Positions 11,697 through 56,819 of a stretch of 61,713 nt of DNA are shown here, piece after piece. Position numbers and translations under genes: made by a program. The stretch is from positions 1 through 61,713 of the forward strand of contig CAZWEI010000002.1 of the NCBI GenBank assembly GCA_964632135.1. The letters are read 5' to 3'. The notes under the pieces were generated by a model. The model had not been told where the DNA came from. It did no database searches and was given only the letters and a program-made list of their open reading frames with translations. Origin of the DNA: Candidatus Micrarchaeota archaeon. GTDB taxonomy: Archaea > Micrarchaeota > Micrarchaeia > Burarchaeales > JBFMAP01. The first letter of the stretch is position 1. Each line of letters starts with the position of its first letter.

Positions 11697-12401
11697 CTAA
11701 TGAGGTTGAAAGTTTTTTTTCTTCTCTAGTTTGTTTTGTCCTAGCGCTTTTTTGACTGTGTCTCTTAGGTCTGCTTTGCCGTGTAATACGAGCTTCAAAT
11801 CTTCTGCAGCCGCTTGTAGTTTGTTATACCGTTCCTTGTCTTTCTCGCTCGCTTTTTCTGGAAGCCCCATTTTACTTAATTTTTCAACTTTTTCTAAAAA
11901 TTTATTGACATCTGACGCGTATATGGGAAAAAGGGTATCATTCATTTCTTTTAGGATGCCGTATGCCACCGTCAACTCATACCTAAATTGAATTTTATCA
12001 CGCTCTTCGTTTATGCGCTTTTCTGCGTCCCCTATGTTTTTTATTTTTTCCTCAGCAATTTCCAAATACTCGCGCATTAAGCTATTGTTGCCTTCTCGTG
12101 CACTTAATCCTGCGAGACCAAAGAATGCCATTGCAGCAATCTTTGGATTTTCGTGCTCCCTTGCCCTGAGGAATATGCCCGCTGCTTCTTCGTGGTCTAG
12201 CTGGTCAATCGCCTTTACAGCCATATCCAAAATATTGCCGTCGGCGGGATTTCTTAAAACAAGGTCTAGAATTGAAATTGCGGTTTGCGGGTCTGATGCA
12301 GCGCGTTTCACCGCGTCCTGAACTGCTATACTTTGAGCTTCTGGAACTGGGCTCCCGGCGCGTAAGATGAGTATACTTTTTTCCATATCGACTTTTGACA
12401 C
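11697..12401 (-). CDS. HEAT/ARM-like helical protein, paralog of 8050..9219
   Basis: ORF 11697..12410. Start moved to the second GTG (12401) by analogy with GGTGGTTTTGTG at 8050. It shares NPKIAAMAFFGLAGLSAREG, IQFRYEL and EKDKERYNKLQAAAEDLKLVLHG with the other paralog. Confidence 0.6.
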   Translation of the reverse strand: MSKVDMEKSILILRAGSPVPEAQSIAVQDAVKRAASDPQTAISILDLVLRNPADGNILDMAVKAIDQLDHEEAAGIFLRAREHENPKIAAMAFFGLAGLSAREGNNSLMREYLEIAEEKIKNIGDAEKRINEERDKIQFRYELTVAYGILKEMNDTLFPIYASDVNKFLEKVEKLSKMGLPEKASEKDKERYNKLQAAAEDLKLVLHGKADLRDTVKKALGQNKLEKKKNFQPH

Positions 12402-12436
12402 AAAAACCACCTTGTAGAATAAGTAATAGTTTATGC
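12402..12436 (-). promoter_or_regulatory. Shared promoter/5'UTR module
   Basis: The minus strand reads gcataaactattacttattctacaaggtggttttt, followed by the GTG. Confidence 0.45.
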
Positions 12437-12465
12437 ATGAACGGATTTATATTACTTGCGCGCGA

Positions 12466-16329: not shown

Positions 16330-16743
16330 ATGGGTTTGTTGGATATGTTTGGTAAGAAGGACATCGGCGACGAGCTAACCAAGAAGATACCTTACGATTT
16401 GAAACTGCACTTCAACCCGTACCGGCTGATCGCACGCAAAAGCGAGTCCGTGGAATTGCGAATAGCGCTCAAAAACCTCAGGGAGGAGCGCGTCCTGACG
16501 TCCGTCGTAGTCGAAGCGCCGAGGAGCCTTGGGTTCGACCAAACCGGTCTCGCGAAGGTGAGGGAGGTCCGTCTCGGGTATATGGGCCCGTTCGAGGAGA
16601 AGGAGGTCGTTGTCGACGTCTGGGGCAACCAGCTCACCGCGCCGGGGGAGCACCCGATTTCGGTGACCGCGTTCTGCCATTATAGGGATTACGCCCATAT
16701 TTTAAACTCGGAAAGAAAACGGCTCGCGTTGCGCGCGGTGTGA
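16330..16743 (+). CDS. Hypothetical protein (beta-rich)
   Basis: 137-aa ORF. No motif was recognised. Confidence 0.55.
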   Translation: MGLLDMFGKKDIGDELTKKIPYDLKLHFNPYRLIARKSESVELRIALKNLREERVLTSVVVEAPRSLGFDQTGLAKVREVRLGYMGPFEEKEVVVDVWGNQLTAPGEHPISVTAFCHYRDYAHILNSERKRLALRAV

Positions 16744-17902: not shown

Positions 17903-17998
17903 TAGCGGGGGCTGGATTTGAACCAACGATCTCTGGGTTATGAGCCCAGCGGGCACTCCATGCTACCCCTAGGGTGCTGTAAACAGCAATACCCCGCT
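17903..17998 (-). tRNA. Initiator tRNA-Met (CAT) with a ~20-nt insertion (putative intron) between the acceptor stem and D-arm
   Basis: The minus strand reads AGCGGGG TA [TTGCTGTTTACAGCACCCTA] GGGGTAGCATGGAGTGCCCG CTGGG-CTCATAA-CCCAG AGATC GTTGG-TTCAAAT-CCAGC CCCCGCT A. It has the A1:U72 pair and GGG/CCC anticodon stem typical of archaeal initiators. The gene is 96 nt, and an oligo-T run follows the 3' end. Confidence 0.8.
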
Positions 17999-18060
17999 GC
18001 CTCCGCTTAAAACAAGTAATTCTATACCCTTAGGTTTATATTCCTTCACACAATGCGCGC

Positions 18061-18636
18061 CTAAGGCGCGCGCGCGCGCTTCAACTCTGCTTCCAACTCG
18101 CGGATATCTTTTCTGTTGTCCCAGTAAGACAACGCGCCGCCGCAGGAAGGGCACTTGAAACTCCATTCGACCGCGATTTCAAAAGGAATCTTCTCGCCCT
18201 TCTTCTTGCAAGACAGACAACCAAAAAAATTATACGAGCGCGCAAACATGAGTCTCTCCTCGATTTCCTTCGCCGCGTTTTCCCTTCTCTCAGCAAGCAG
18301 CCGCACGGCGGCTTCGGGGCGCAGTTTCCACGTGTACGAGTACCACCCGCTTTCTTTATCCCTCGTTCTCTCGTAATCAACAACCCCGTAATTATGCAAT
18401 TTGTTAAGCACCGCGCGCACATCGCTCACCTTCAACCTGCAATTCTCCGCGAGGCGCTCGTCGCTCATCGGCTGCGCAATCTCGCGGACGACGGAGAGCG
18501 CGTTCTCACCCGCAACCTGGAGCAAAAATTCTCGTGCGTGTTTATTCAGAAGCAGTTCGTTGCCTGGTTTTATGGGCTTTTCTGTTTTTCCCGCCTTCGC
18601 CGTCTTCTTTTTTGTCGCCTTTTTCTTCCTAATCAT
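18061..18636 (-). CDS. tfe: Transcription factor E, alpha subunit
   Basis: ORF trimmed to ATG 18636. It has a wHTH (VSDVRAVLNKLHNYGVVDYER..DKESGWYSYTW) followed by a zinc ribbon (CLSC...CPSCGG). A TATA-like aatatataaaag lies upstream. Confidence 0.85.
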   Translation of the reverse strand: MIRKKKATKKKTAKAGKTEKPIKPGNELLLNKHAREFLLQVAGENALSVVREIAQPMSDERLAENCRLKVSDVRAVLNKLHNYGVVDYERTRDKESGWYSYTWKLRPEAAVRLLAERRENAAKEIEERLMFARSYNFFGCLSCKKKGEKIPFEIAVEWSFKCPSCGGALSYWDNRKDIRELEAELKRARAP

Positions 18637-18866: not shown

Positions 18867-20408
18867 ATGGAACAACCCCCGCGGCATTGGATTGAGCCAC
18901 TCTCGGAGCAAATCATCGAGAGAAAAAAACAACCAATCGTAATAACTTCGGGAATGACTACGAGCGGGCCGTGCCACCTCGGTACGCTGTGCGAGTTCCT
19001 GTACCCCGCGGTCATACAAAAATTTTTAAAAACAAAGGGATGCACAAGCGAGTTCCATTTCATCGCCGACATTTTCGACGCGTTCGACGCGGTTCCTGTT
19101 TCGATGGCGGAATTCGAGCGCGCGCTCGTCCCCCACCTCGGGAAGCCGCTTGCCGTTGTGCCGGACCCCTACGGGTGCTGCGGGTCCTTCGGGGACCACT
19201 TCCTTAACGAGGCAAAGGGGATAATGGAAACGTTCAGCATCCGTCCAAAAATCCACAAGGCGAACGAGCTCTACGCGCAGGGAAACTTCGACGAGTACGC
19301 GCGCCGTTTCCTCAAAAATTACGAGCAGGCAAGGGAGGTCGTCTCGCGGACCTCGCTGAAGGACGCGCCCGCGGACTGGAGCCCCCTGATGCCCGTCTGT
19401 TCCAATTGCGGCAAAATCGCCACCACGAGCGTCACGGCGTTCGATGAAAACCATTTTTCGTATTCGTGCGTCCGCGATGTCGATTACACTAAAGGATGCG
19501 GTTTTTCAGGCGAGTCGAAAATAAGCGAGCACAAATACAAACTCACTTGGCGCCTCCACTGGCCGGCGTGGATGGACGTTTTCAATACGGGCGTCGAGGG
19601 CGCGGGCATGGACCACCACACGCGCGGCGGCTCGTGGGACACGGCGCGCGCAGTCTTCGAGGAGGTTTTCCATAAGGAGCCGCCAATCACGTACAAATTC
19701 GGATTCATCCTGTTCAAAGGGAAAAAATACTCGAAATCAAAAGGGGCGGGGCTCGGGGTGTGCGACGTTCTCTCCCTCGTGCCGCCCGAACTCCTCTCGT
19801 ACCAACTCCTCAAACACGACATACAGGAGAACAAGGACTTTGACCCGACGGGGAACCGGCTGATGCAGCTTTACGATGATTTCGCCGAGGCGGCGCGCCT
19901 CGCCGAAGGAGACGGGGCAGCGCTTTCCCGCGCGGAAAGAAAACGCGCGGTCGCGTTCTCCCTTTCAACGGAAAAAATAAATTGGCGCGCGCAGTTTGCC
20001 GACCTCCTCCTCTACTACCAAATTTACGGAGATTGGAAAACGGTCGGGGAACTCGTCGGAGATCCCGCAGGGGCGGAGTACCTGAAACCGTTCATACAGC
20101 ACTGGCTCAACGAGGGCTACGCACCCGACGAATATGTTTTCAAATTCGAGCCGAGAAAGCCGACGGAAAACAACGGCGCGGTTCGGGCGTTTGCGCTCGC
20201 GCTCAAAGAGGACATGGACGCGCTTGCGGTGCACAATCTGGTTTTTGAAGTCGCGAAACAGCACGGCCTCCAGCCAAACGAGCTTTTTAAAACGTTGTAT
20301 CAAACACTACTTGGAAAGGACAGGGGTCCGCGCTTCGGCAAGCTCGTGTATGCGCTTGGGGCGGGCAAAATAAAAAACACATTGTCGAATCTCGTCGACT
20401 TAGGTTGA
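18867..20408 (+). CDS. lysK: Class I lysyl-tRNA synthetase
   Basis: 513 aa, with SGPCHLGTLCEF (HIGH-like) and KYSKSKG (KMSKS). The overall layout fits archaeal class I LysRS. Confidence 0.9.
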   Translation: MEQPPRHWIEPLSEQIIERKKQPIVITSGMTTSGPCHLGTLCEFLYPAVIQKFLKTKGCTSEFHFIADIFDAFDAVPVSMAEFERALVPHLGKPLAVVPDPYGCCGSFGDHFLNEAKGIMETFSIRPKIHKANELYAQGNFDEYARRFLKNYEQAREVVSRTSLKDAPADWSPLMPVCSNCGKIATTSVTAFDENHFSYSCVRDVDYTKGCGFSGESKISEHKYKLTWRLHWPAWMDVFNTGVEGAGMDHHTRGGSWDTARAVFEEVFHKEPPITYKFGFILFKGKKYSKSKGAGLGVCDVLSLVPPELLSYQLLKHDIQENKDFDPTGNRLMQLYDDFAEAARLAEGDGAALSRAERKRAVAFSLSTEKINWRAQFADLLLYYQIYGDWKTVGELVGDPAGAEYLKPFIQHWLNEGYAPDEYVFKFEPRKPTENNGAVRAFALALKEDMDALAVHNLVFEVAKQHGLQPNELFKTLYQTLLGKDRGPRFGKLVYALGAGKIKNTLSNLVDLG

Positions 20409-21439
20409 TGTCGGACTGGCGTGATAATTTGGCGAACCGCACGGACGGGGAAATGCCGCAAACGCTTTCGCACTATTCCAAACTAGTGGACGCCGAACTC
20501 GAGCACATCATCCCGAAGAACAAAAAACCGACCGCGGTTTACGCGCCCGTTTGGGACCTGTTGGGCAGAGGTGGGAAGCGCTTCAGGCCTGCGCTTTGCC
20601 TGCTCTCGTGCGAGGCGGTTGGCGGGAAGAAGAAGACCGCGCTCCCGATCGCAGCCGCAATCGAGATGTTCCATACCTTCACGCTAATCCACGATGATAT
20701 CGAGGACGATTCAGAACTGCGGAGGGGCAAGCCCTGCCTGCACAAAACATACGGCACCCCCATCGCAATTAACGCGGGCGACGGCCTTTTCATGCTCGTG
20801 TGGCAGGCCGTTCTCGACGCAAAAATCCCGCACGAGAAAATAATACGCGCCCAGAGGATGCTCGAGGCGGCGTTCAGCAGGGTTCTCGAGGGTCAGGGGG
20901 TCGAACTCGACTGGCACGCGCGGAAGGAATGGAACCTGGTCGAAAAGGATTATTTTGAAATGGTCGGCGGAAAGACCGGCGCGCTCATAAGCGTCGCGTG
21001 CGAGGTCGGCGCGTTCGTTGGAGGCGGCGCGGGCGAGCAGGTGCGCGCGCTGAAAGATTTTGGAATGGCGGTCGGAATCGGTTTCCAAATTCAGGACGAT
21101 ATTTTGAATTTGATAGGCGAGGAGGAAAAATACAAGAAGGAGATAGGCGGCGACATAACCGAGGGCAAGCGCACCCTAATGGTGCTCCACACATTACAAC
21201 TCTCCAGCGCGGACGAGAAAAAACAACTGATAGGCCTTCTCGATTCCGGAACGCGCGACAAGCAGAAAATCGCAGAGGCCGTGCAACTAATCAAAAAACA
21301 CGGCGCGATAAAATACGCCTGGGACAAGGCGAAGGCGATGGTCGAGCGCGCGAAGGCAGGACTTCAAATTCTTCCGAAAAACAACGCAACCCGCGACCTG
21401 CTCCAAATCTCTGATTTTCTCATAAACCGTGATTTTTAA
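20408..21439 (+). CDS. idsA: Geranylgeranyl diphosphate (polyprenyl) synthase
   Basis: FARM LIHDDIEDDSELRRGKP and SARM GFQIQDDILN are both present. ATG 20408 overlaps the lysK stop (TGATG). Confidence 0.9.
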   Translation: MSDWRDNLANRTDGEMPQTLSHYSKLVDAELEHIIPKNKKPTAVYAPVWDLLGRGGKRFRPALCLLSCEAVGGKKKTALPIAAAIEMFHTFTLIHDDIEDDSELRRGKPCLHKTYGTPIAINAGDGLFMLVWQAVLDAKIPHEKIIRAQRMLEAAFSRVLEGQGVELDWHARKEWNLVEKDYFEMVGGKTGALISVACEVGAFVGGGAGEQVRALKDFGMAVGIGFQIQDDILNLIGEEEKYKKEIGGDITEGKRTLMVLHTLQLSSADEKKQLIGLLDSGTRDKQKIAEAVQLIKKHGAIKYAWDKAKAMVERAKAGLQILPKNNATRDLLQISDFLINRDF

Positions 21440-21450: not shown

Positions 21451-22824
21451 ATGACCCAGATGGAACTTGCAAAAAGAGGCGTCGCCACCCCCGAGGCCAA
21501 GGCGATAGCAAAAAAAGAAAAGATAAATTTAGACAAACTCGCGCGTTCCATCGCGCGTGGCCGAGCGGTCGTTCTTTCTAGTGGCGTTTTTGTTTGTGGC
21601 GTTGGCGAAAGACTTGCAACGAAGATTAACGCGAACATCGGCGCGTCCCCGGATTACGTCAACGTAAAGGAAGAAATTAAAAAATTAAAAACCGCGGTTG
21701 CCGCTGGCGCAGACACCGTGATGGACCTCAGCATCGCCGGCCCGCTCGACGACATTTTGTGCGCGGTGATAAAAAATGCAAAAATTCCTGTGGGAACTGT
21801 CCCCATCTACCGGGCGGCGCTCGCAGCCACGCAACGCGGTGGAAAAATTTATGATATGAGCGAGGACGAGATGCTCGCCGCGATACAAAAACACATCAAA
21901 CTCGGCACCTCGTTTCTCACGCTCCACGCGGCGATAACGCGGGATGGCATCCGCCTCGCGAGAAAAAGGGATTTGGGGATTGTAAGCAGGGGCGGGTGCT
22001 TTCTCGCGACTTGGATGCTCCACAACAAAAAGGAAAACCCGCTCTATAAAAATTTCGACTACATTCTCGAAACGGCGCACGAAAACGACGTGGTTATAAG
22101 CATAGGCGATGCGCTCAGGCCAGGCGCGCTCAGCGACGCGAACGACGCCGCTCAAATTCACGAATTAAAAATTCAGGGCGAGCTCGCGAGGCGCGCGCAC
22201 GCGGAAAACGTCTCCGTAATCTGCGAGGGCCCGGGCCACATGCCGCTTAGCACGATCGCGCAAAACGTCGCGCTCCAGAAGCGCATCTGCAGGGGCGCGC
22301 CCTATTACGTCCTCGGCCCTCTCGTCACCGACATCGCGGTCGGCTACGACCACATAAACGCCGCGATAGGCGGCGCGCTCGCTGCAGCGGCAGGCGCGGA
22401 TTTCCTGTGCGTGGTCACCCCGAGCGAGCACGTCGCGCTTCCAACCGAAAATGACGTGCGCGAGGGCGTGATCGCCGCGAAACTCGCCGCGCACGCAGCC
22501 GACATCGTGAAACTCAAACGCTCGAAAATTGATTTTGAGATGGGGAAGGCGCGCGCGCAACTCAACTGGGCGAAACAATTCTCGCTCGCGCTCGACCCAG
22601 TGCGTGCGCGCGAGTACAAAAAAAGACGAGGCACAAAGAGCCCCGCGTGCAGCATGTGCGGGGATTTCTGCGCCATCAAACTGATGAGGAACGCGCAATT
22701 TTTGCTTCCAATTTTTCGCTTCGCGAAAAATGGACATCTTCGCGCGACGCGCGAAGCTTGTCGCAAAAATGCGCATTTGCCCGGAGGGCAAATTGCGCGC
22801 CAAACGAAACAGCAATCTTTTTAA
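21451..22824 (+). CDS. thiC: Phosphomethylpyrimidine synthase ThiC, with a repeat-encoded C-terminal extension
   Basis: Typical ThiC blocks are present (DTVMDLS, IGTVPIY, GDALRPG, EGPGHMP, YVLGPLVTDIA.GYDHI, CSMCGDFCA). The last ~40 codons are read through palindromic element copy c. Confidence 0.9.
   Translation: MTQMELAKRGVATPEAKAIAKKEKINLDKLARSIARGRAVVLSSGVFVCGVGERLATKINANIGASPDYVNVKEEIKKLKTAVAAGADTVMDLSIAGPLDDILCAVIKNAKIPVGTVPIYRAALAATQRGGKIYDMSEDEMLAAIQKHIKLGTSFLTLHAAITRDGIRLARKRDLGIVSRGGCFLATWMLHNKKENPLYKNFDYILETAHENDVVISIGDALRPGALSDANDAAQIHELKIQGELARRAHAENVSVICEGPGHMPLSTIAQNVALQKRICRGAPYYVLGPLVTDIAVGYDHINAAIGGALAAAAGADFLCVVTPSEHVALPTENDVREGVIAAKLAAHAADIVKLKRSKIDFEMGKARAQLNWAKQFSLALDPVRAREYKKRRGTKSPACSMCGDFCAIKLMRNAQFLLPIFRFAKNGHLRATREACRKNAHLPGGQIARQTKQQSF
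22692..22800. repeat. Palindromic element, copy c (nested/composite, 109 nt)
   Basis: The outer arms GCGCAATTTTTGC ... GCAAAAATGCGC enclose two extra hairpins (CCAATTTTTCGC-ttc-GCGAAAAATGG and CTTCGCGC-gac-GCGCGAAG). These are followed by ATTTGCCC-gga-GGGCAAAT. Confidence 0.8.
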
Positions 22825-23159: not shown

Positions 23160-23191
23160 ACGAACATAAAAAGAGATATAAATTTGTTCGT

Positions 23192-23224
23192 GTAAAAAAG
23201 ATTACTTGTTCTAGAGGTGGTTTT
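23192..23224 (+). promoter_or_regulatory. Shared promoter/5'UTR module
   Basis: gtaaaaaagattacttgttctagaggtggtttt precedes GTG 23225. Confidence 0.4.
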
Positions 23225-23737
23225 GTGGTAAATGTAAACGTTTTGATAGTTATCGGGTCGGTCGATGTGCGCGAGGAGATTAAAAAAGCCGTATCGGACA
23301 CCGCCAAACACTCGTGGTTCGCACGTTTTAAATTTGAAATAATAGACGCCAAGTCCGGTTCCGACTGGTTTTCCGAACGCGACAAGACGCGCCCCAACAT
23401 CATAATCGCCGATCATGAAAATTACGCGCCATTACTAGGATATAGAAAAATGGCTTGCAAAGTAATCGAAGAAAAGCCACACGTGGTTATTTTTGATTTT
23501 GACCACGTGCCCACAGGCGGCCTTGACATTTTAGATGAAATTAAACAACAATATACAAAAAATATAGAAACGCGGTTTAAACTGCAAAAAAAAGAAGAAA
23601 AACTAGCCGAACCTAGTGGGCCGGGTGACGGGATACTTTCAAAGAGGCCGCACCATCTAACGTTCCCCAATACGCTTGCCGAATTTAAAGGGAGAACGAA
23701 GCCGCTCTTTAAGCAACGACCGGTTCAAATAATTTAG
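23225..23737 (+). CDS. Receiver-like protein
   Basis: This is the 3' part of ORF 22730..23737. GTG 23225 sits 5 nt after GAGGTGG. VNVLIVIGSVDVREEIKK...NIIIADHENY...VVIFDFDH has the beta-alpha periodicity of a receiver fold. Confidence 0.5.
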   Translation: MVNVNVLIVIGSVDVREEIKKAVSDTAKHSWFARFKFEIIDAKSGSDWFSERDKTRPNIIIADHENYAPLLGYRKMACKVIEEKPHVVIFDFDHVPTGGLDILDEIKQQYTKNIETRFKLQKKEEKLAEPSGPGDGILSKRPHHLTFPNTLAEFKGRTKPLFKQRPVQII

Positions 23738-24440: not shown

Positions 24441-25397
24441 TCACAAAAATCTTTTTTCTTTGCTCTCCTCATCACGGCATAAAAGCGCCACGCGGCTTAT
24501 CTCGTTCTCGTCGGCGTAAACATACCCCGTTTCACGCGCAACCTCTTTCGCGAACTCCCTTACCTCCTCGAAGCTCGGCATGTTCTCCGCGCCCAATCTA
24601 TGAATAGAATAACCAACACGCATGTACGATTTGCACTCGACGAACATAGGGCGCGCGAGTTTCACGAGTTCGGCGTATTTTTCAGGCTCGTGCATGTTGC
24701 GGTCGCGCACGAGCGTCATTCGGATGACTGTTCGCGACGGATGTCTCGCGAGCAGCAAAAGGCTTTTGTTCAGCCTTTCCCAGCCGTTTGATAGCAATGG
24801 CGCGTTCACCTTTTTATATGTTTTCTCATCAGGCGCGCACAGCGAAACGTACAGTTGCGTTGGCCTTATCCTCTCAATCACGTCGGGTTGCGTGCCGTTC
24901 GAAACAACGAACGTGCTCATGTTCTGCGCGTGGAATTCGTTGATGAGCGCACCAAGTTTCGGATAGAGAGTAGGCTCGCCGCTCAGCGATATCGCGACGT
25001 TCTTCGGCTCCTGCGCCTCTTTATATTTCTCTTCGTCAATCTGAACTCCACCAAAGCCGGATATCATCTCGCGTTGTGCAAGGAGCGCGCGCGCCGCGAT
25101 GTCGCACGGTTCGTCCGCGTCCTCCGCGCGCATTTCCGTCTCGGTGAAATCAACCGCGCGCCAGCAGAAGACGCACTTGTGCGTGCAGTGCGCGACGCAA
25201 GGGGTAATTTGCAGGCACCTGTGCGAAGGAACACCGTAAAACTGCTGCTTGTAGCATGCGCCCTTCCCGAGTATCGCCCTCTTCGTCCACAGGCAAAGTT
25301 TCGCAGCCGCGTTTTTCCCGATTATTTTGTATTTCTGCCGCCTCAGCAGTTTCTCAAGCTCTTGCGAGACCATATTATTATTTAAATACCGAATCAC
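24441..25397 (-). CDS. taw1: tRNA 4-demethylwyosine synthase (Taw1/TYW1, radical SAM)
   Basis: LCLWTKRAILGKGACYKQQFYGV.SHRC plus the radical-SAM cluster CTHKCVFCWR and SLSGEPTLYP. Confidence 0.9.
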   Translation of the reverse strand: MIRYLNNNMVSQELEKLLRRQKYKIIGKNAAAKLCLWTKRAILGKGACYKQQFYGVPSHRCLQITPCVAHCTHKCVFCWRAVDFTETEMRAEDADEPCDIAARALLAQREMISGFGGVQIDEEKYKEAQEPKNVAISLSGEPTLYPKLGALINEFHAQNMSTFVVSNGTQPDVIERIRPTQLYVSLCAPDEKTYKKVNAPLLSNGWERLNKSLLLLARHPSRTVIRMTLVRDRNMHEPEKYAELVKLARPMFVECKSYMRVGYSIHRLGAENMPSFEEVREFAKEVARETGYVYADENEISRVALLCRDEESKEKRFL

Positions 25398-25512
25398 ATA
25401 AACTACTTACGCATTTGGGCGTTTGCAATTTTTGCACGCAACGCAGCGCGCGCGATTTTGTTTCCTGCGCGCCGCGGCAAACCGATCAGCAGTTTTGTTT
25501 GAAGGTGGTCGC

Positions 25513-26676
25513 ATGGGAGTTCAGTTGGAGTACATACCCGAGGAAAAAAAGGTCATAGTTTCACAACCAGAGTCAGTAAGTTCTCTGGAGAAGGGCTGCT
25601 ACGGCACGATGCATAAGGGCGTGATAACTCTTTTTCCAGAGGAAGCCCTTTACTTGATAGACATACGAAACGGCAGATGCTACGACACGCACGGGAACGA
25701 ACTGAAATTCAACGACCTCGCTGAAAAATTTCCCATTCCAAAACTTATGGCGCGCTATTTCACCTATAAAGATTGGCGCGACAGGGGGCTCGTTCTCAGG
25801 CCGATTTCAGAGGCAGAGGGAAAATACGGCAGAAGTCCGGCGAAAAAATATCCCTCGGGAAAATTCAACGCGCCCAGATACAGCATTCTCGGACTGTTCT
25901 TCCCAGAGGATTTGGTGACTGTCATTGATGACGACGTAGTGGGAAAAGAAATTTACGAGACCTATTGGCTTGGACAGTTCGGTAGTTACAAGGCAGAGCA
26001 GCGCGGGAGGCTCAGCAAGCTCGACGTGTATGAAACGCTTTTCATGATGAAGCACTGCGGGCTCGCGCTCAAGAATGCGAACGAGAGCGAGGTAATAAAG
26101 CTCGCGACAAAGCGCAGGCCGGATTTCAGGAGCATGTACAGCGTTTATGAAGATTGGAGGCTCCGCGGCTTCATTCTGAAAACCGGTTTCAAGTTCGGCA
26201 CCCACTTCCGCCTCTATTTCCCGAAGGCATCGCCGACGCGCGACGTCGATAAATGGATTCATTCAAAACACGTGATACACGTTTTCCCAAGGAGGAGCAA
26301 ACTCCTCATCTCCGAATGGGCGCGCGCAATCCGCGTAGCGCACAGCGTGAAGAAGACGTTCATACTCGCGATTCCGGGCACGACCAGCAAGAAGAAACCA
26401 GTAGAACTAGATTTTCTCCTCTACCACCGCAAGCCCGGGGGCATCGAAACCCCTAAAGAGGGAAAGCCGCGATTCCTGATGTTCTCGCTCAGCGAGGAGG
26501 AATACATCGGGGGCGCAGAACTCGCGGACGCGATAGAGGAGACGAAGAAAATTGGGCTCGAGTTGATGCTTGCGATCAGCGATAGGGAGACGAGCGTCAC
26601 ATACTACCGCGTGCGCAGGTTGGAACTCCCGGGAAGCAAGTACGAATATTACGAGATTGAGTGGGAGCAGCCATAG
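25513..26676 (+). CDS. endA: tRNA-splicing endonuclease, long single-chain multi-unit form
   Basis: ORF trimmed to ATG 25513 (387 aa). The catalytic unit is YEDWRLRGFILKTGFKFGTHFRLY...HSKHVIHVF...RVAHSVKKTFILA. It is preceded by a degenerate unit (YFTYKDWRDRGLVLRP) and followed by ~95 extra residues. Confidence 0.85.
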   Translation: MGVQLEYIPEEKKVIVSQPESVSSLEKGCYGTMHKGVITLFPEEALYLIDIRNGRCYDTHGNELKFNDLAEKFPIPKLMARYFTYKDWRDRGLVLRPISEAEGKYGRSPAKKYPSGKFNAPRYSILGLFFPEDLVTVIDDDVVGKEIYETYWLGQFGSYKAEQRGRLSKLDVYETLFMMKHCGLALKNANESEVIKLATKRRPDFRSMYSVYEDWRLRGFILKTGFKFGTHFRLYFPKASPTRDVDKWIHSKHVIHVFPRRSKLLISEWARAIRVAHSVKKTFILAIPGTTSKKKPVELDFLLYHRKPGGIETPKEGKPRFLMFSLSEEEYIGGAELADAIEETKKIGLELMLAISDRETSVTYYRVRRLELPGSKYEYYEIEWEQP

Positions 26677-26711
26677 CGCGCGGCGCGCGAAACGTATATA
26701 AACCAGAATAC

Positions 26712-26744
26712 GCATAACGTAATACTAATTCTAGAGGTGTTTCC
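26712..26744 (+). promoter_or_regulatory. Shared promoter/5'UTR module
   Basis: gcataacgtaatactaattctagaggtgtttcc precedes ATG 26745. Confidence 0.45.
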
Positions 26745-27797
26745 ATGGATAATGAAATGGACCAAATCCTTCTCGTGTCCCCAGACCAGCGCCGGTTCAA
26801 GCCACTTAACGAGGCACTGCAAACGGCGAAACACACCACCCCCGACATCGGCTATACGAACATACTCACGGCGACTTCTGCGTCTGCGGCGCTGGAACTA
26901 CTCAAAGACAACAAAGATATTGGCGTTGTCGTCGCAGCCGCCCTCACCGTTTCAGAGGCAGCATTCCTGTTTTCCAAAATCAAGGAGCAAAGTCCGCAGA
27001 CACAGATAATGATGGCGATTCCAGAATCAGGAGAAGACACAAAATCATTAGGGCCCTTCAGACCAGATTTTTTTAGCTATAAAGACCTTCACAAAGAGCC
27101 AGCGGCAGTTGTATACCGGATAGAAACCGCGCTTCTAATTGCAAACATAGGCGGAAAATCCAGCGTCCTGTTTATATTCGACCCATGCAGCGCGTTTGTT
27201 TTTTATACCCGGCATAGAGACGACAGCAGAACCCTATGCGAAAAGATAGGAATGAAACACGAGATTGACCCAATCCTAGACAACGTATCCCTACATGCTG
27301 CGGGAAGCACCCAAGACCGCCTTATATCAAGCGCCCAAGCCTGTAGCGACAAGTCCCTTCGCGCCGCTGTTGTTGACCTTTGGTCGCCTGACGATGTTTT
27401 TACTGTGGTTACCGCCATCCGCGACATTGACCCAAGGCTTCCAATAGCCGTGGTATTCCCTGAAAACCCAGACAAATCCGTGAAGGAGGGGTTTTCAATA
27501 CTAAAGGAATATGCCGCGCAATACGGTCTAACTATCGTTCGTAACGGCGACCACCTGTTTGCGAATCTTAACGACTTTTTAAATGGACGACCGGTGAAAG
27601 AAGATGCAGAAACTACTACACCAAATAAACTTAAAACTGACACTGAGGACGTGTTGTCAATACCTCTCCATTTAGCCCAGAAGAAAAAGCTAAACCCCAA
27701 CGACTTCCAAAAAGAAATCGCCAACAGAAAACCCGTGTACCTACTACTACGAGACCTTATCCCCGAAAAATTACGCAACAGAGTGTGGAAAACCTAG
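26745..27797 (+). CDS. Protein with two tandem receiver-like domains
   Basis: 350 aa. Domain 1 is QILLVSPDQ...GVVVAAALTVSEA (no Asp). Domain 2 is SVLFIFDP...AAVVDLWSPDD...IAVVFPEN. Confidence 0.55.
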   Translation: MDNEMDQILLVSPDQRRFKPLNEALQTAKHTTPDIGYTNILTATSASAALELLKDNKDIGVVVAAALTVSEAAFLFSKIKEQSPQTQIMMAIPESGEDTKSLGPFRPDFFSYKDLHKEPAAVVYRIETALLIANIGGKSSVLFIFDPCSAFVFYTRHRDDSRTLCEKIGMKHEIDPILDNVSLHAAGSTQDRLISSAQACSDKSLRAAVVDLWSPDDVFTVVTAIRDIDPRLPIAVVFPENPDKSVKEGFSILKEYAAQYGLTIVRNGDHLFANLNDFLNGRPVKEDAETTTPNKLKTDTEDVLSIPLHLAQKKKLNPNDFQKEIANRKPVYLLLRDLIPEKLRNRVWKT

Positions 27798-27821
27798 CAC
27801 CTCGCGGCGGCAAGTGATTTT

Positions 27822-28382
27822 ATGAGCGGTAAAATACTCGTGGTTGGCGGAGAAGGAAGCGAAATCCGCCCTGCTGTTGCTGAGCAGTTGCGAAAGAACG
27901 GACATGGCGTGCACGAGGCAATGTCGGCAGGCGACGGGTTCAATATATTTTTTATTGAAATGAACAACAAAGAACCGTTTAGCCTAGTAATAATATCAAA
28001 TCTAGATTTCTGGAACCTAGCTTTCGAAATCGTGAAAGCACGCAAAGTACCGAACGTCAAAATACTGGCGATAACCGAGCGCGGGATAATAAACGGCGAA
28101 CTGGAGCGTAAATTGGAATCCTACGCAAGGAAGAACGGCGTAACCGCATTTTTTCCAAAAATCAATTTATACAAGGATGGAAAATTAGAAGCGGTTGTAA
28201 CCAATTTGTTGAACAACCAACACACACAGAAAAAAAAGAAAAAGAACAAAAGAGGATATGTGTTACCTCTTTCTTCCGCTCCACCTCTATCAGACACGAT
28301 GTCACCTCGAGGATATTGGGCGCGGTATGAACTTCCTAAATGCTTATACCACAACAAACCGCAAACGCGCTTGCCCGCCTAA
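27822..28382 (+). CDS. Pseudo-receiver protein (GG-type)
   Basis: KILVVGGEGSE replaces the acidic pocket and LVIISNLDF replaces the phospho-acceptor. ILAITERG (Thr) and FFPKINL (Lys) are retained. Confidence 0.55.
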   Translation: MSGKILVVGGEGSEIRPAVAEQLRKNGHGVHEAMSAGDGFNIFFIEMNNKEPFSLVIISNLDFWNLAFEIVKARKVPNVKILAITERGIINGELERKLESYARKNGVTAFFPKINLYKDGKLEAVVTNLLNNQHTQKKKKKNKRGYVLPLSSAPPLSDTMSPRGYWARYELPKCLYHNKPQTRLPA

Positions 28383-28504
28383 ATAAACTTTAGAAGCGCC
28401 GCAACCGACTCAACAACCATTTTCGGCTCTTCCTTTCCGCGCGCCTTTTCCGCGTCTTCTTTTTTCGTTACTCCTGTGAGAACGAGGACGCCGCGTGTGC
28501 GGAA
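28379..28504 (-). pseudogene. Relic 3' fragment of a HAD-IIA phosphatase gene (duplicate of the 3' end of 29168..29998)
   Basis: The minus-strand translation FRTRGVLVLTGVTKKEDAEKARGKEEPKMVVESVAALLKFI* aligns with FGALSVLVLTGVAKKEDVKKLRGKEKPKLVVDSVASLLKLV of the intact gene. DNA identity is ~75% by eye. There is no start codon and no N-terminal part. Confidence 0.7.
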
Positions 28505-28523
28505 TTAATATAAGCCCGCGTAT

Positions 28524-28556
28524 GCATAATATTCTACTTATTCTAGGGTGTGATTT
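28524..28556 (+). promoter_or_regulatory. Shared promoter/5'UTR module
   Basis: gcataatattctacttattctagggtgtgattt precedes ATG 28557. Confidence 0.45.
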
Positions 28557-29171
28557 ATGGATTTAGAGAAGCGCCAGAAATATAGCGTGCTTGTTTTTGG
28601 CGGGTCAAACGAAGACCAGGACTATCTAGTAAAACCAATACGAGACGCAATAGAGAAAATGGGCGGGTCGATACTGAAATTAAGCATCCCCAGCGTGCCT
28701 CACTTCTGTGAAGCACTCTTTCACGTTAACGATACAAAAGACGAAGGGAACCTTATTCTCGCTATCGCGATTATGCCGCGGGAAGCCACCAAACTCTCTT
28801 CCGCGATGGAATATCTTCTCGCGATTTTAAATTCAGACCCAACTCTTCCTATGTTGATGTTGAGTTATGAGGGTAGTATGCACCGGGCGGGCTTAGATAC
28901 ATTGGAGAGAATTGGCGTCAAATTTCTTGATAGAACGTCTATATCTTCAGGATCCGGAAGAGTCAAGATTAAAGAAGCAATTGAAGAATTATTGACCAAG
29001 GCGCCAGAAACACGAACTCGCGCGTCTGGACTCGACACCGACGAATCTCTACCCGGGCATTCTTTTTGGCACCCTGGGCAAAAGTTCTCCATGTTTCTTC
29101 CTTTCTCCGTTGAACGCGCAATGCAACGCGCGCAACGCAACAAACGCGGCAACCCCCTGTGGCGCGTCTAG
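28557..29171 (+). CDS. Pseudo-receiver protein (GG-type)
   Basis: SVLVFGGSNEDQD, LILAIAIMPRE (no Asp) and LMLSYEG. Its architecture parallels 27822..28382. Confidence 0.5.
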   Translation: MDLEKRQKYSVLVFGGSNEDQDYLVKPIRDAIEKMGGSILKLSIPSVPHFCEALFHVNDTKDEGNLILAIAIMPREATKLSSAMEYLLAILNSDPTLPMLMLSYEGSMHRAGLDTLERIGVKFLDRTSISSGSGRVKIKEAIEELLTKAPETRTRASGLDTDESLPGHSFWHPGQKFSMFLPFSVERAMQRAQRNKRGNPLWRV

Positions 29172-29998
29172 CAACGTCGAATGGCCGTGCCGTCAACAAG
29201 TTTCAACAGAGAAGCGACAGAATCCACAACCAACTTCGGCTTCTCCTTCCCGCGCAGTTTTTTCACGTCTTCCTTTTTCGCGACTCCCGTGAGCACGAGA
29301 ACGCTGAGCGCGCCGAATTTGTTCGCGGCAACGATGTCGCTTTCTGCTCTATCACCAACGCAAACAATCTCCTTTGGTTTCACGCGTGCCTCCCTTGCAA
29401 TCCTCTCTAGCAAAAACGTGTTCGGCTTTCCGATAACTATTTCAGGCGATTTCTTCGCGCAGGCTTTCAGCGCGCCCACCATCGCGCCCGCGCCGGGGTA
29501 GAACCCCTCCTCGAGAGGAATGGTCGCGTCCTCATTCGTTGCGATGAAGCGCGCGCCGTTCTGGAGCGCGGCCAGCGCGATGCGCAACTTCTCGTAATCG
29601 AACTCGCGGTCAAGGCCGACGACGACAAAATCAACGCGCTCGCCCTCCCTGCCGCCCATAATCTCAAACCCCGCCATCCCCAACTCGTTCTTCAGCCCTT
29701 CCTCCCCAATAATGAACACCCGCCCCTTCCCGTACCGCTCCTTCAAATAAACCGCCGCGCCGTACGCCGACGTAAATACCTCTTCTGCGCGCGCCTCAAT
29801 CCCGAGAGAGTTGAGTTTTTCCGCGTATTGCTGGCGCGTGCGCGTGGCGTTGTTCGTGAGGAAGTAGACTTTCTTGTTTTTAGCGCGGAGGATGCGTACG
29901 AGTTCGCCGGTGCCCGGAATTGTGCGCGAGCCGACGTACAGCACGCCATCAAGGTCGAAAACGAAAACCCTGTATTTTGAGAGTGCGCGCGCTTTCAT
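29168..29998 (-). CDS. HAD-superfamily subfamily IIA phosphatase (NagD-like)
   Basis: ORF trimmed to ATG 29998. It has motif I FVFDLDGVLY, motif II FLTNN, and motif III/IV KP...VGDRAESDI. Confidence 0.85.
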   Translation of the reverse strand: MKARALSKYRVFVFDLDGVLYVGSRTIPGTGELVRILRAKNKKVYFLTNNATRTRQQYAEKLNSLGIEARAEEVFTSAYGAAVYLKERYGKGRVFIIGEEGLKNELGMAGFEIMGGREGERVDFVVVGLDREFDYEKLRIALAALQNGARFIATNEDATIPLEEGFYPGAGAMVGALKACAKKSPEIVIGKPNTFLLERIAREARVKPKEIVCVGDRAESDIVAANKFGALSVLVLTGVAKKEDVKKLRGKEKPKLVVDSVASLLKLVDGTAIRRC

Positions 29999-33632: not shown

Positions 33633-34253
33633 TTATTCAGAAAAGTAGCTTGGCGAATGCGCGCGCGGCGTGTTGTCGTACTGGTGCCGAGGAGGGAAAT
33701 CATCAAAACCAAATGCGTTTTTCGGTGGCTTCCAGCGACCATAAATCTCATTCAAATCGCGCGAGCCTCCTCCCCCAACCTCCGCGCTTTTAGGCACAAC
33801 GCTGTTGAGAATTTTTACGGCACCCGGTTTCTTTTCACAAATACCTTTGTTGTAGATAAACGTGATATTGGTTGGCGTCGATCCGTCTTTGTTTTTAAAT
33901 GCTTTTTTATCTGCGTCATTCTCTACCAACACAAATATAGGGAGACCTCGCCCCTCTTTATATTTGAGTGCTTTACGAACAAAATTCGCGGGGTAGCCCA
34001 TCACATTAGCCGAAACAATCATAAGATTAATCGCTCCCAGCTCGGTCGATGTCAATCCAAAACCAAACGGCATATCTTCCATGCAACTTCTTACAAAGTA
34101 GGGTTCCAGTTTTCTACCCGTCAATTTCTTAATTTTTCTATATGTTCCTTTGCTACATACGAAAAAAGTTTTGATAGTACCGTCCACAACACCACCCCCA
34201 AGAACAAGTAATATCTTTTGCAGGTGCAAATTTATATTCGTTGCGCGTTTCAA
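33633..34253 (-). CDS. Pseudo-receiver protein (GG-type)
   Basis: KILLVLGGGVVDG, NLMIVSANVMGY (Ser in place of Asp), IFVLVEND and FIYNKG. The stretch looks AT-rich by eye. The start is TTG. Confidence 0.5.
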   Translation of the reverse strand: MKRATNINLHLQKILLVLGGGVVDGTIKTFFVCSKGTYRKIKKLTGRKLEPYFVRSCMEDMPFGFGLTSTELGAINLMIVSANVMGYPANFVRKALKYKEGRGLPIFVLVENDADKKAFKNKDGSTPTNITFIYNKGICEKKPGAVKILNSVVPKSAEVGGGGSRDLNEIYGRWKPPKNAFGFDDFPPRHQYDNTPRAHSPSYFSE

Positions 34254-36573: not shown

Positions 36574-37752
36574 ATGAAGGAAAATTACGACGTCGTGGTT
36601 GTGGGCGCGGGCCCTGCCGGAAGCAGCGCCGCGAAAACCGCGGCGAAGAATGGGATGAGCGTCGCGCTCCTCGAGAGGAGGAAGGAGATAGGCGCGCCCG
36701 TCCGGTGCGGCGAGGGCGTGGGGCTCCACTGGATTCAGCAGTTTGGAATGAACGTCAGCGACAAGGCGATATCCGCGCGAATAAACGGCGCAATCTTGTA
36801 CGCGCCTGACTTGAAGCACAGCGCGACCATACGCAACGAGCAGACGAAGGGCGTCGTCGTTGACAGAAAAGTTTTCGACAAGGAGCTGGCGATTGACGCG
36901 GGGCGCGCGGGCGCGGAAGTTTATGTCAAGACCGACGTCGTCGACGTGCTGAAGAACGATGGGAAAATTTCGGGCGTGAGGGCGCGAACAGACGGCGAGA
37001 ATATTGATGTTTTTGGAAAGGTCGTGATTGCAGCGGACGGCGGCGAATCCATCATTTCACGACTCGCGGGCCTGAACACGCTCGCGACTCTTTATGATAC
37101 TGATTTTGGAATCGAGTACGAGATGGCGAACGTCGACTGCACTGATTTGATTGAAATTTATTTCGGGAGGGAGTGGGCTGCCAGGGGGTATGCGTGGATT
37201 TTTCCAAAGGGAAAAGACGTCGCGAACGTGGGCGTTGGAATCGGGGGGATGGAGAAAGGGAATGCCGTCGAATACCTGAACAAATTCCTGAAACTGCCGA
37301 GGTTCGCGCGCGCCCAGCCGGTTGCAGTCAAGGCCGGGTTGATTCCAGTAGGCTCTGCGGTCAAGAAAATGGTCTTGGACAATTTCATGGTCGTCGGGAC
37401 CGCGGCGCACCAGGTTGACCCGATTCACGGTGGAGGAATCTGCCTCGCGATGGAGGCAGGCGTGCTCGCTGGCGAGGTCGCCGCTGACGCGGTGAGGAAA
37501 GGCGACACTGGCGAGAAAAGCCTTTCCGCCTACGAGAAAAGGTGGCGCGAGAAGGAGGAGAGGAAACTCGCGAAAAGGCTCCTCCTCCGCAAGGCGCTCG
37601 AGAAACTGAACGACGACGACTTGAACGCGATATTCGAATCTCTTGATGACAAGGACATAGAAAACCTGCTCGGGGGGAAATTCGCGCCGGTCGTGAAGAA
37701 AGTCCTTTCGCGCAGGCCGCAGTTGCTGAAGGTGGTGAGCGCGCTCGTTTAG
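36574..37752 (+). CDS. Geranylgeranyl reductase (digeranylgeranylglycerophospholipid reductase family)
   Basis: YDVVVVGAGPAGSSAAKTAAKNG (FAD dinucleotide fold), RCGEG, YAWIFPKG, and GTAAHQVDPIHGGGI. Confidence 0.9.
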   Translation: MKENYDVVVVGAGPAGSSAAKTAAKNGMSVALLERRKEIGAPVRCGEGVGLHWIQQFGMNVSDKAISARINGAILYAPDLKHSATIRNEQTKGVVVDRKVFDKELAIDAGRAGAEVYVKTDVVDVLKNDGKISGVRARTDGENIDVFGKVVIAADGGESIISRLAGLNTLATLYDTDFGIEYEMANVDCTDLIEIYFGREWAARGYAWIFPKGKDVANVGVGIGGMEKGNAVEYLNKFLKLPRFARAQPVAVKAGLIPVGSAVKKMVLDNFMVVGTAAHQVDPIHGGGICLAMEAGVLAGEVAADAVRKGDTGEKSLSAYEKRWREKEERKLAKRLLLRKALEKLNDDDLNAIFESLDDKDIENLLGGKFAPVVKKVLSRRPQLLKVVSALV

Positions 37753-40268: not shown

Positions 40269-40320
40269 ATTGGGCATTTCTACCGAGCACGCTGAACGAT
40301 AACTATAAATACAAGAGAGT

Positions 40321-40361
40321 GAATAAAATAATACTTATTCTACAAACGACAGAGGGAGAAT
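40321..40361 (+). promoter_or_regulatory. Shared promoter/5'UTR module (variant)
   Basis: gaataaaataatacttattctacaaacgacagagggagaat precedes ATG 40362. Confidence 0.4.
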
Positions 40362-41708
40362 ATGGGGGGACATCCTGCGGTCGTGGCCGCGCTCCTGATA
40401 CTTGTCTGCGTCTTCGTAAACAGCGCGAGCGCCATCTCCCTGTATGCGAGTTCCGGCCCGTACCCGGCGGACTGTCCGATAATAATCAAGGGCGAGCCAG
40501 GCAGCACGATCAGCATATACTCGATGAAGGACGAGTACATCGGGAACTGCATCATCCCGTTCTACTCCGATTACTGTGTGTTCAGCCTGAACGAAAAATA
40601 CGGCGACGGCGCATATAGGATAACCGACGGAAGCTCGCATCTGTTCATCTCATTCTCAAAAAGCGCTCCTTGCCTGAACTGTTTCATCGACGATAAGCCC
40701 TACCCGCGGGGCATGGAAAGCCCGTCGAATCCAAACGAGTTCTGCGATGTTTCCTCGCCCTGGGCCTGGAGCACAAGGCCGCTTGCCGGCGTCGTCGTTT
40801 CGCCAGCCTCGATAACAGTCGGCCAGAACCAGATGTACATTTTCAGGGCCTATGGCTTCGACGTCAACAACAACACGGTTCAAATAGCGCCGGAGTGGAA
40901 AAGCGGCAATCCGCAGGTAGGCGAAATAAATTCGCACGGCGCATTCACCGCAAAAACCAGCGGCACAGCCATCATAACCGCGACGTACAACGGCCTTTCC
41001 GCGAATTCCAGCGTCGAAGTCGTCGTGATAGCGCGGCCAGACTATGAAAAAATCCTGTCCCTGAGCGCCCCGGGCGCTGCCCGATTCGGCGACACACTGC
41101 TGGTGCGCGTATCGAGACTCGACGGCGCGCCGTTTGCCAACAAGACCGTGACGATACTCACCCCGAACCAGGATATCACCCTGAACGCACTAACCGACGA
41201 AGATGGGCGGTTCGTTTTCAAGGTTCCAGAGCCCGGCGTCTACACGTACGAGGTTCAGGGTTATTCATTTGAAAAAACCGTTTCGACATTTGTGGAGGAG
41301 CAGCCTCCTACCGCGTGCCAGGTCTGCGCGAACGCGACATGCCCGAACCAGACAAACGCGTGCCAGGCGCAGCAACTCCAGCAACAGCCGCAGCAGCCGA
41401 TAACCTCGCGGATTACCGCTTATTTCGGAAGGATGAGCGGCTATGCGCCGGTCGCCATGGCGGTCATCATCCTGCTCGCGTTCGTTTTCGGCTATCTGCT
41501 TTTCGTAAGATACCGCGGCAGCAAGGCAGAAGCGGAATCCTCGCAATTTGAAGGGCTCTCCCCCGAAAAAGGCGAGGAAACAAAGATATGGACGGTTGAT
41601 GACTTTGAAACGCCGCCGCTCTACGCGCCTCCGAAAACGCTGGCCGCGCCGCATTCTGCAAAAACGAAAAAGGCCAAGCGCGCAACAAAAGGCAAGCCTA
41701 GGCGTTGA
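40362..41708 (+). CDS. Surface protein with Big_2 (Ig-like) and carboxypeptidase-regulatory-like domains, a C-terminal TM and a Lys-rich tail
   Basis: Signal peptide; a Big_2 pattern (VVVSPASITVGQNQ...AFTAKTSGTAIITATYNGLSANSSVEVV); NKTVTILTPNQ...TDEDGRFVFKVPEPGVYTYEV; a Q-rich linker; and the TM AMAVIILLAFVFGYLLFV. Confidence 0.7.
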   Translation: MGGHPAVVAALLILVCVFVNSASAISLYASSGPYPADCPIIIKGEPGSTISIYSMKDEYIGNCIIPFYSDYCVFSLNEKYGDGAYRITDGSSHLFISFSKSAPCLNCFIDDKPYPRGMESPSNPNEFCDVSSPWAWSTRPLAGVVVSPASITVGQNQMYIFRAYGFDVNNNTVQIAPEWKSGNPQVGEINSHGAFTAKTSGTAIITATYNGLSANSSVEVVVIARPDYEKILSLSAPGAARFGDTLLVRVSRLDGAPFANKTVTILTPNQDITLNALTDEDGRFVFKVPEPGVYTYEVQGYSFEKTVSTFVEEQPPTACQVCANATCPNQTNACQAQQLQQQPQQPITSRITAYFGRMSGYAPVAMAVIILLAFVFGYLLFVRYRGSKAEAESSQFEGLSPEKGEETKIWTVDDFETPPLYAPPKTLAAPHSAKTKKAKRATKGKPRR

Positions 41709-42711: not shown

Positions 42712-43116
42712 ATGCAAAACATGCGCACCGAATCCGCGCCCGACGTCAAGGAGCGAATCGAAAGGATACTGCGCGCGCTGGAATTCGACCACATCAACCA
42801 ATACAGAATCATATGCATGCGAAGCAGGGGCAGCAAGGCCCGCGCGTATGCGCGCGTGTGGAACCTGCCCTCAATCTGGCAGAAGGCGCTTGACGTGCGC
42901 GCCTATTACATCATCGAGGTTCTCTCCGAGCATTTCGACAAACTCGGCGAGGAGCAGAAGGAGAAGGTGCTCATCCACGAACTTCTCCACATCCCGAAAA
43001 CGTTCAGCGGCGCGCTCGTGCCGCACCTGTGCTTCGGGAAGAGGATAGACAACGCGCGCGTGGAGTCTCTTTACAGAAAATATAAGGAAAACTGCAACGA
43101 AAAAGAACAATTCTAG
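42712..43116 (+). CDS. Putative small zinc metallopeptidase (HExxH)
   Basis: 134 aa with LIHELLHIP (HExxH). A TATA-like ctttataaacc lies ~25-33 nt upstream. Confidence 0.55.
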   Translation: MQNMRTESAPDVKERIERILRALEFDHINQYRIICMRSRGSKARAYARVWNLPSIWQKALDVRAYYIIEVLSEHFDKLGEEQKEKVLIHELLHIPKTFSGALVPHLCFGKRIDNARVESLYRKYKENCNEKEQF

Positions 43117-56818: not shown

Positions 56819-56819
56819 C

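Follow-up and report, generated by a model that had tools for sequence, protein, structure and literature searches.

The window analyzed here, a 61.7-kb stretch of a Micrarchaeota genome, contains 75 called ORFs, 29 of which are Pfam-annotated housekeeping genes. Its gene content is archaeal: the products include a tRNA-intron endonuclease (EndA), a class I LysRS, a wyosine radical-SAM enzyme (Taw1-like), ThiC, TFE-alpha, a geranylgeranyl reductase, and an archaeal-type mevalonate cluster. More than 1,300 EndA homologs were retrieved at E ≤ 1e-20, and almost all of the named homologs among the best 120 belong to Micrarchaeota, Micrarchaeia, or Anstonellales. Identity is 77% for the best full-length matches and 96% for a partial protein of MAG141 (GCA_040755655.1). 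The MAG141 contig L138 is 83 to 88% identical to the window at the nucleotide level, and MAG141 is the nearest relative. EndA itself (25423-26676) has both the N-terminal and the catalytic endonuclease domains; its true start probably lies ~29 codons downstream of the first TTG, because the homologs are ~388 aa long. The tRNA-Met gene (17904-17999, minus strand) resembles that of an initiator tRNA whose intron occupies a non-canonical position, in that AGCGGGG at 17999-17993 pairs with the 3′-end CCCCGCT and ~20 nt (attgctgtttacagcaccct) separate the acceptor stem from the D-arm; ARAGORN and Rfam report the downstream part only. The features of EndA fit both the broad-specificity enzyme of the ARMAN-2 type and this odd tRNA intron.

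Pfam matches at 52633-58008, 20405-21439, and 36574-37752 resemble an archaeal-type mevalonate and isoprenoid lipid pathway, comprising a GHMP kinase, a flavoprotein (UbiX-like), a UbiD-like protein, the large and small subunits of AcnX, an amino-acid-kinase-family protein, a polyprenyl synthetase, and a geranylgeranyl reductase. Lipid synthesis is thought to be absent from many DPANN archaea, and the pathway is therefore notable in a DPANN genome. A PhageMetallopep-family gene (42712-43116) and a gene for a KaiC-like ATPase (47122-47901) also sit amid the housekeeping genes, both without the promoter module described below. Over the whole window, the hexamer GCGCGC is 3.5-fold over-represented (249 observed versus 71 expected under a first-order Markov model) and is frequent in intergenic DNA, either just upstream of TATA boxes or ahead of T-runs after stop codons; GCGC sites occur, for example, at 2300-2400, 5815-5857, 18050-18080, 22762-22804, and 26677-26690. 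Palindromic units of the form GCGC-(A/T)n-GCGC recur, including a 43-nt unit that is 93% identical at 5815-5857 and 22762-22804, and possible roles include a terminator, a structural element, or a REP-like repeat. We considered whether this 43-nt repeat is a duplicated ThiC 3′ end, but the palindromic unit explains it better.

Eighteen nucleotides past the EndA stop codon begins a promoter and leader module (26695-26744, plus strand) that runs up to the ATG of an orphan gene at 26745. A sequence-only reading of this DNA had described a conserved element at 26712-26744, which lies inside this module, and had listed seven full copies over the window. All seven are present where that reading placed them and are co-oriented, with a start codon directly downstream, 5 to 7 nt past GGTG in five copies and behind a longer leader in the other two. 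One more full copy, the eighth, emerged from a scan with a position weight matrix (PWM); it lies on the minus strand, with its core at 34199-34221 and a GTG start at 34187. The layout is fixed as TATA-N9-GCATAA-N5-TACTTATTCTAG-(A)GGTG-N5-start, and the module spans ~50 bases. The spacer after GCATAA had been described as N3-6; it is instead a constant N5, with one extra base only in the copy listed at 8017.

The first copy (8000-8049, plus strand) carries that extra base and combines the TATA octamer TAATATAC, GCATAA, the core ATCTTATTCTGG, and the Shine-Dalgarno (SD) sequence AGTGG ahead of a GTG at 8050, which opens the gene of a 389-aa orphan without a Pfam family (8050-9219, plus strand). 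The second (12402-12453, minus strand) lies directly after the stop codon of an upstream gene for a 753-aa ATPase-like protein and leads, from a GTG at 12401, into a 234-aa gene product (11697-12401, minus strand, GC3 0.40). This protein is 31% identical to that of 8050-9219, and the two form the sole paralog pair detectable by BLASTP among the cargo lead proteins. A variant with GTAAAA and the core TACTTGTTCTAG makes up the third copy (23175-23224, plus strand), followed by a GTG at 23225 and a gene for a 170-aa protein without a Pfam family (23225-23737, plus strand, GC3 0.46). The copy behind EndA is the fourth, and its cargo (26745-28382, plus strand) is a two-gene operon encoding the 350-aa orphan and then a 186-aa protein with its own internal SD. 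The fifth copy (28507-28556, plus strand) is the sole exact match to the core TACTTATTCTAG and precedes an ATG at 28557 and a gene for a 204-aa protein (28557-29171, plus strand).

The sixth copy (34188-34238, minus strand) is the one that the earlier reading missed; it reads AATATAAA-N9-GCAAAA-N5-TACTTGTTCTTG-GGGGTGG and leads into a gene for a 184-aa protein (33633-34187, minus strand). Both remaining copies have the longer leader. The seventh (40304-40361, plus strand) has the variant GAATAA and the SD GAGGGAG ahead of an ATG at 40362, where the gene for a 448-aa protein with signal peptide/TM-like ends begins (40362-41708, plus strand); the eighth (59200-59257, plus strand) has GCATAT, the core TACTCGTTCTGG, and the SD GGTGA ahead of an ATG at 59258. 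Behind the eighth lies an operon of three remote paralogs of 243, 230, and 249 aa (59258-61440, plus strand, GC3 0.46-0.55; phmmer E of about 2e-4 to 9e-4 in a three-sequence search), and a fourth ORF follows and reaches the window end. A partial match upstream of endA (25395-25410) had also been proposed. It exists, but in its context (25381-25410, plus strand) it reads TTTAAATA-N8-CATAA-N2-TACTTAC, a spacing unlike that of the module, and it is only a weak relative.

The module is enriched well beyond background. Allowing up to one mismatch, the window has five occurrences of the core TACTTATTCTAG, always among the listed copies, where we estimate ~0.3 to be expected by chance, and TACTNNTTCT occurs nine times (seven of them in module context) versus 1.55 times in shuffled sequence (maximum 6). 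With a 23-nt PWM, six of the listed copies score 28 to 34 bits, whereas the maximum over 30 shuffles is 18.6. Nor is the module a generic promoter or SD consensus, since it heads only eight of the 75 ORFs and, as the earlier reading had claimed, no housekeeping gene (0 of the 29 with Pfam annotation).

To the eight window copies we aligned three more, L012, L013, and L020, from other genomes, so that our evidence base is the 61.7 kb of the source genome plus single module copies in three other Micrarchaeota MAGs. All 11 copies share one fixed register, and in every one of them an A/T-only TATA octamer stands at a fixed N9 before GCATAA. A GGTG-type SD follows 2 to 4 nt past the core in nine copies and 10 to 13 nt past it in two, with the start codon ~5 nt further on. 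Mean pairwise identity is 0.64 in the TATA octamer, 0.32 in N9, 0.73 in GCATAA, 0.45 in the A/T-biased N5, and 0.78 in the core; over the 40 nt from TATA to core it averages 0.60 (range 0.33-0.80). Conserved blocks separated by neutral spacers of constant length therefore argue for selection on a phased signal rather than for recent copying. A-rich stretches (AAACG, AAGTA, AAAGAG, AACGA) precede most copies at the position tested for a BRE, with no strict consensus. On inspection of the alignment, GCATAA and TTATTC can pair at five of six positions in the consensus and at only two to four of six in variant copies, and the invariant positions TACT..TTCT have no symmetric partner. We thus rejected a palindromic or dimeric operator, as the inverted-repeat half-sites degrade in variant copies and the invariant positions are asymmetric.

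The geometry of the module points to where transcription may begin. Judged by their promoters, the other first genes of the window appear to be leaderless in most cases, and in 8 of 10 clear leaderless genes the TATA octamer ends 22 to 24 nt before the ATG. Counted from the TATA end, the module has the A of TAC at nucleotide 22 and the invariant purine at nucleotide 26, so that the distance from TATA to the TAC core equals the distance from TATA to ATG in the leaderless genes. Because the spacings match, we place the probable transcription start at or within the TACTT core; the initiating base would be either the A of TAC or the invariant purine 4 nt beyond it. The predicted leader would be ~22 nt long, would begin ACUUAUUCU, and would carry the SD; that the 3′ part of the module includes the SD had already been recognized. 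With this start site, the TATA octamer, at a fixed position in all 11 copies, would have the spacing expected of a TBP/TFB core promoter (TATA about 22-25 nt upstream of the start), and the conserved segment between the TATA box and the start codon would cover about −13 to +10.

The earlier reading had taken the 5′ part of the module for a TATA region at −36 to −27 from the start codon. Had it been right, GCATAA-N5-TAATAC would be the TATA box of leaderless transcripts and GGTG would be incidental, which would suit a window in which most genes are leaderless, with TATA ~30 nt ahead of the ATG, and an N5 spacer biased toward A/T. However, every one of the 11 copies has a better, canonical TATA octamer 9 nt upstream of GCATAA, N5 is poorly conserved, and a strong SD stands 5 to 7 nt ahead of the start codon in 9 of 11. 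Start codons are either ATG or GTG, and 5 of the 11 module genes use GTG. Leaderless initiation depends on a 5′-terminal AUG, and these GTG starts behind strong SDs of the GAGGTG type therefore call for a transcribed leader. We consider the leaderless geometry very improbable. Because a leader is needed, GCATAA is better read as a promoter-proximal element, and the GCATAA...TAATAC segment is probably such a −10-like element and not a TATA box. Several leaderless promoters of the window have an ATAA- or ATAT-like element at the same position.

A conserved sequence just upstream of start codons might also be a structured RNA leader (a riboswitch, a thermometer, or a protein-binding hairpin) or a miniature transposable element. 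A gathering-threshold Rfam search of the window returned tRNA only, with no match in the module, and the 11 predicted leaders neither share a fold nor exceed shuffled sequences in stability (z-scores −1.3 to +1.5). Terminal inverted repeats and short target duplications are lacking at the insertions described below, which are bounded by the TATA box and the stop codon. The probability of either explanation is, in our estimate, negligible.

The module resembles a known archaeal core promoter joined to an SD leader in its A/T octamer after an A-rich stretch, its A/T-rich element ~10 nt before the inferred start, its pyrimidine-purine initiator, and its GGTG-type SD 5 to 7 nt before the start codon. 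Unlike such a promoter, it has a 12-nt near-invariant block, its best-conserved part, over the inferred start and the first 10 transcribed bases. In Thermococcales, TrmB-family regulators bind a glycolytic motif, and their operators are inverted repeats that serve metabolic genes. The module is similar to these operators in being a specific motif, downstream of TATA and overlapping the start site, that is common to otherwise unrelated genes; it differs from them in being asymmetric, strictly phased to TATA, and placed at the head of orphan genes. The class of putative mobile promoters requires an identity of 80% or more across no fewer than 50 nt between −150 and −50 of non-homologous genes (PMC3575422). 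They share with the module the occurrence, inside a single genome, of similar upstream sequences before non-homologous genes, in some cases common to several taxa (PMC3575422), but the module lies at about −52 to −1 with its lower mean identity over 40 nt. We therefore do not class it as a mobile promoter in that sense (PMC3575422), since its identity falls short of that definition and its spacers are near random; it is a constrained motif instead. A lineage-specific cis-regulatory promoter/leader motif, which marks accessory genes rather than acting as a generic promoter, best fits these comparisons.

The genes behind the module have a character of their own. Seven of the eight module-led transcription units begin with a gene that has no Pfam family (Fisher's exact test, p = 0.023). 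The sole lead gene with a significant Pfam match, 40362-41708, encodes a membrane-anchored protein with a CarboxypepD_reg domain above the curated cut-off and Big_2 below it. Cargo genes have a GC content of 0.46 and a GC3 of 0.50, compared with 0.54 and 0.68 for annotated genes (Mann-Whitney p = 2e-5 for GC3); 40362 is the only one with a host-like GC3 (0.70). For the proteins of 26745, 8050, and 28557, searches against billions of database proteins recovered nothing but the query. The one non-self match of 28557 among 1.84 billion representatives, the bacterial repeat adhesin P0124, we judged spurious, as its score adds up ten weak repeat matches.

We were unable to confirm the labels receiver-like and HEAT-like that the earlier reading gave to some of these genes, with no significant Pfam match and models of low confidence. 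The receiver candidates 23225, 26745, and 28557 have no Pfam match even at E ≤ 5. Two AlphaFold2 single-sequence models show alternating beta/alpha elements at low confidence (pLDDT 48 and 55), and Foldseek searches with them gave nothing at E ≤ 1e-3. A MAFFT alignment of nine receiver candidates was uninformative, and only L012b, a neighboring gene in another MAG, has a Response_reg match, which is below threshold (E = 2e-4). At L012 (3005-5232) and L020 (5739-6254), the genes behind the module encode small proteins of alpha/beta appearance whose C-terminal tails are basic and rich in aromatic residues, and similar tails occur in the window proteins 23225, 27822, 28557, and 33633. These tailed proteins may be one very divergent family, not demonstrable by sequence. 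Low GC3 also occurs in orphans that lack the module (6026-6734, 2408-4888, 9242-10552, and 52266-52610), among which the gene at 6069-6734 (GC3 0.35) is preceded by a TATA box of its own and a GAGGTG leader. Module use is thus not universal among compositionally atypical genes.

Comparison with syntenic relatives shows how some of these units are placed. The gene order of the EndA region (taw1, EndA, HAD and/or PRC, RNase HII, DHH) is kept in L138, L142, L144, and L145, and beta-CASP and then GGR come next in those relatives whose contigs extend far enough. In all four, the next conserved gene follows EndA directly; the window has at this point a 2.5-kb insertion (26677-29195) that carries two modules and three genes. 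The other insertion (33635-34248) is made up of the A-rich stretch, TATA, module, and ORF to its stop codon and nothing else, and replaces ~14 nt of intergenic DNA in L138. The two inserted loci account for three of the eight copies. Within the first, a decaying 105-nt duplicate of the 3′ end of the HAD hydrolase gene (28401-28505; intact copy at 29213-29315) adjoins the TATA box of the fifth module copy, with the breakpoint exactly there, so that the 28557 cassette is flanked by ~105-nt direct repeats. This left copy is non-functional and 78% identical to the MAG141 gene. The HAD duplication is a footprint of the insertion mechanism, be it att-like, Campbell-type, or replication slippage. Pfam searches found no integrase or transposase domain in the window, and the cargo units have no common 3′ element or recombination site that we could find. 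Neither PWM nor relaxed-regex scans found any copy of the module in ~99 kb of the relatives, as against eight in the 61.7 kb of the window.

Phage morons are promoter-gene-terminator units inserted between conserved genes, and the module units are like them in being compact, self-sufficient, atypical in composition, and present or absent between syntenic neighbors. They are unlike morons in residing in a cellular archaeal chromosome and in all using one promoter/leader type. We rejected a MITE or an outward promoter borne on an insertion sequence, for which transposase relatives, terminal inverted repeats, and target-site duplications are lacking, as well as integron-type gene cassettes, since each unit has its own promoter and there is neither a common 3′ element nor an integrase.

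When 185,579 species, each represented by one genome, were scanned for the exact pattern, 42 loci matched. Three of these belong to Micrarchaeota MAGs (WY4.bin88, MAG141, and PPR_0038), and only these three have TATA, SD, and start codon in register; the others are coding or chance matches. L012 and L020 are syntenic, with flanking proteins 70 to 88% identical, and the module stands at the same place in both, after a diphthine-synthase gene. It is the sole non-coding segment that blastn aligns there (76% over 87 nt), and the ORFs behind it can be aligned over only ~22 N-terminal residues. At this site the module has been kept and the ORF has diverged; the signal has therefore been conserved longer than its cargo. 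In metagenomes, all 88 loci that matched the pattern were rejected as conserved coding sequences or chance matches in other organisms, including the module-like locus L080, on a contig of 29% GC with no ORF behind its ATG. Scans of IMG/VR with three patterns gave chance-like or coding matches only and no contig with several copies. A viral group (L190, L206, L220, and L235) has core, SD, and ATG in an A/T-rich context once per contig, for which chance beside a phage SD suffices as an explanation.

These data bear on the possibility that the module is the native signal of a virus, plasmid, or cassette system of Micrarchaeota that arrives with each ORF, its conservation reflecting common origin and the transcription needs of the donor. 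The precise insertions from TATA box to stop codon, the direct repeats around one cassette, the low-GC3 orphan cargo, and the occurrence of eight copies in the window versus one exact-pattern match in the whole of MAG141 all speak for such a mobile pool. On the other hand, the window lacks an integrase and a transposase as well as terminal inverted repeats and any 3′ recombination site common to the units, the IMG/VR scans produced no multi-copy contig, and the cargo gene 40362 is host-like in composition. Retention of the module at the orthologous L012/L020 site argues in turn for vertical inheritance under selection. We regard this explanation as unlikely, and it partly overlaps with the one that we prefer.

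It is also conceivable that the module is simply a strong promoter with an optimal leader, in which the core is the preferred initiator of the clade joined to an unstructured SD leader. The core would then have been selected independently, or copied, wherever high expression was needed, with no dedicated regulator. Archaea in general use signals such as TATA, an A/T-rich −10-like element, and a GGTG SD, and the unstructured leaders predicted here are what efficient translation would favor. A 10-nt piece of the core, ATTACTTGTT, recurs in the tRNA-Met promoter (18007-18042, minus strand) after the TATA octamer AATATAAA, which hints that the core is perhaps a general strong initiator and not regulon-specific. 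A study of the cultivated ‘Ca. Micrarchaeum harzensis’ also reports high expression of many hypothetical genes, in keeping with a generic promoter (PMC8623467). However, the tRNA-Met element is 4 nt out of register, being that much nearer to the TATA box, and the core is absent from all Pfam-annotated housekeeping genes and from the other SD-led genes of the window (46531-47058 and 16330-16743). A clade-wide initiator should moreover recur in the ~99 kb of related genomes, which have no copy. At L013, the run of stalk-protein genes (uL1/uL10/P1) is divergent from the module and not behind it, and the window has no ribosomal-protein or rRNA genes. As TATA, the −10-like element, and the SD are generic, the phased TACT..TTCT core is the special part. 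We do not expect a generic promoter to be the answer, although it keeps some plausibility and, like the mobile pool, overlaps with our preferred explanation.

We favor, with modest confidence, a clade-specific cis-regulatory promoter/leader that defines a co-regulated set of accessory genes. The module would be a complete archaeal promoter joined to a short Shine-Dalgarno leader, running from an A-rich BRE-like stretch through the TATA octamer, N9, the GCATAA promoter-proximal element, N5, the core, and (A)GGTG to the start codon ~5 nt on. The mRNAs of module genes would all open with ACUUAUUCU(A)G and continue into a strong SD, in contrast to most first genes of the genome, which are predicted to be leaderless. 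The segment from −13 to +10, strictly spaced, non-palindromic, and conserved block by block, may be the recognition site of one dedicated factor, either a DNA-binding regulator that contacts the pre-initiation complex or a protein that binds the mRNA 5′ end. Such a factor would co-regulate lineage-specific, fast-evolving accessory genes that presumably come and go in the genome as compact units of promoter plus ORF. The architecture, enrichment, gene association, cross-species conservation, and insertion polymorphism are direct observations, from which we infer the transcription start, the existence and nature of the trans factor, and the co-expression of its targets. Of the two origins suggested in the earlier reading, a regulon with a shared factor is favored by the block-wise conservation with neutral spacers, with the factor itself a putative one. 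The idea of a cassette that travels with its cargo is supported by the two precise insertions, but simple duplication of promoter and gene together is unsupported, there being a single paralog pair.

A full-text literature search returned no description of promoters, start sites, or leaders in Micrarchaeota or DPANN, and almost nothing is known of DPANN transcription signals and gene regulation. A motif that marks fast-evolving, strain-variable orphans offers a handle on which hypothetical genes act together, and the orphans so marked are the most likely host-interaction candidates in these symbionts. A promoter and leader that outlast their coding sequence also bear on how genes are recruited into expression in streamlined genomes. 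More speculatively, and in our view rather doubtfully, Micrarchaeota may have a dedicated expression system for fast-turnover orphan genes, with phased cassettes, a specific factor, and precise insertion between housekeeping genes. Insertion would then sometimes duplicate ~100 nt of the 3′ end of a neighbor, and coding parts would be replaced or diverge far faster than the signal. If true, this would be a new way to acquire, label, and co-regulate accessory, possibly host-interaction, genes in reduced symbiont genomes.
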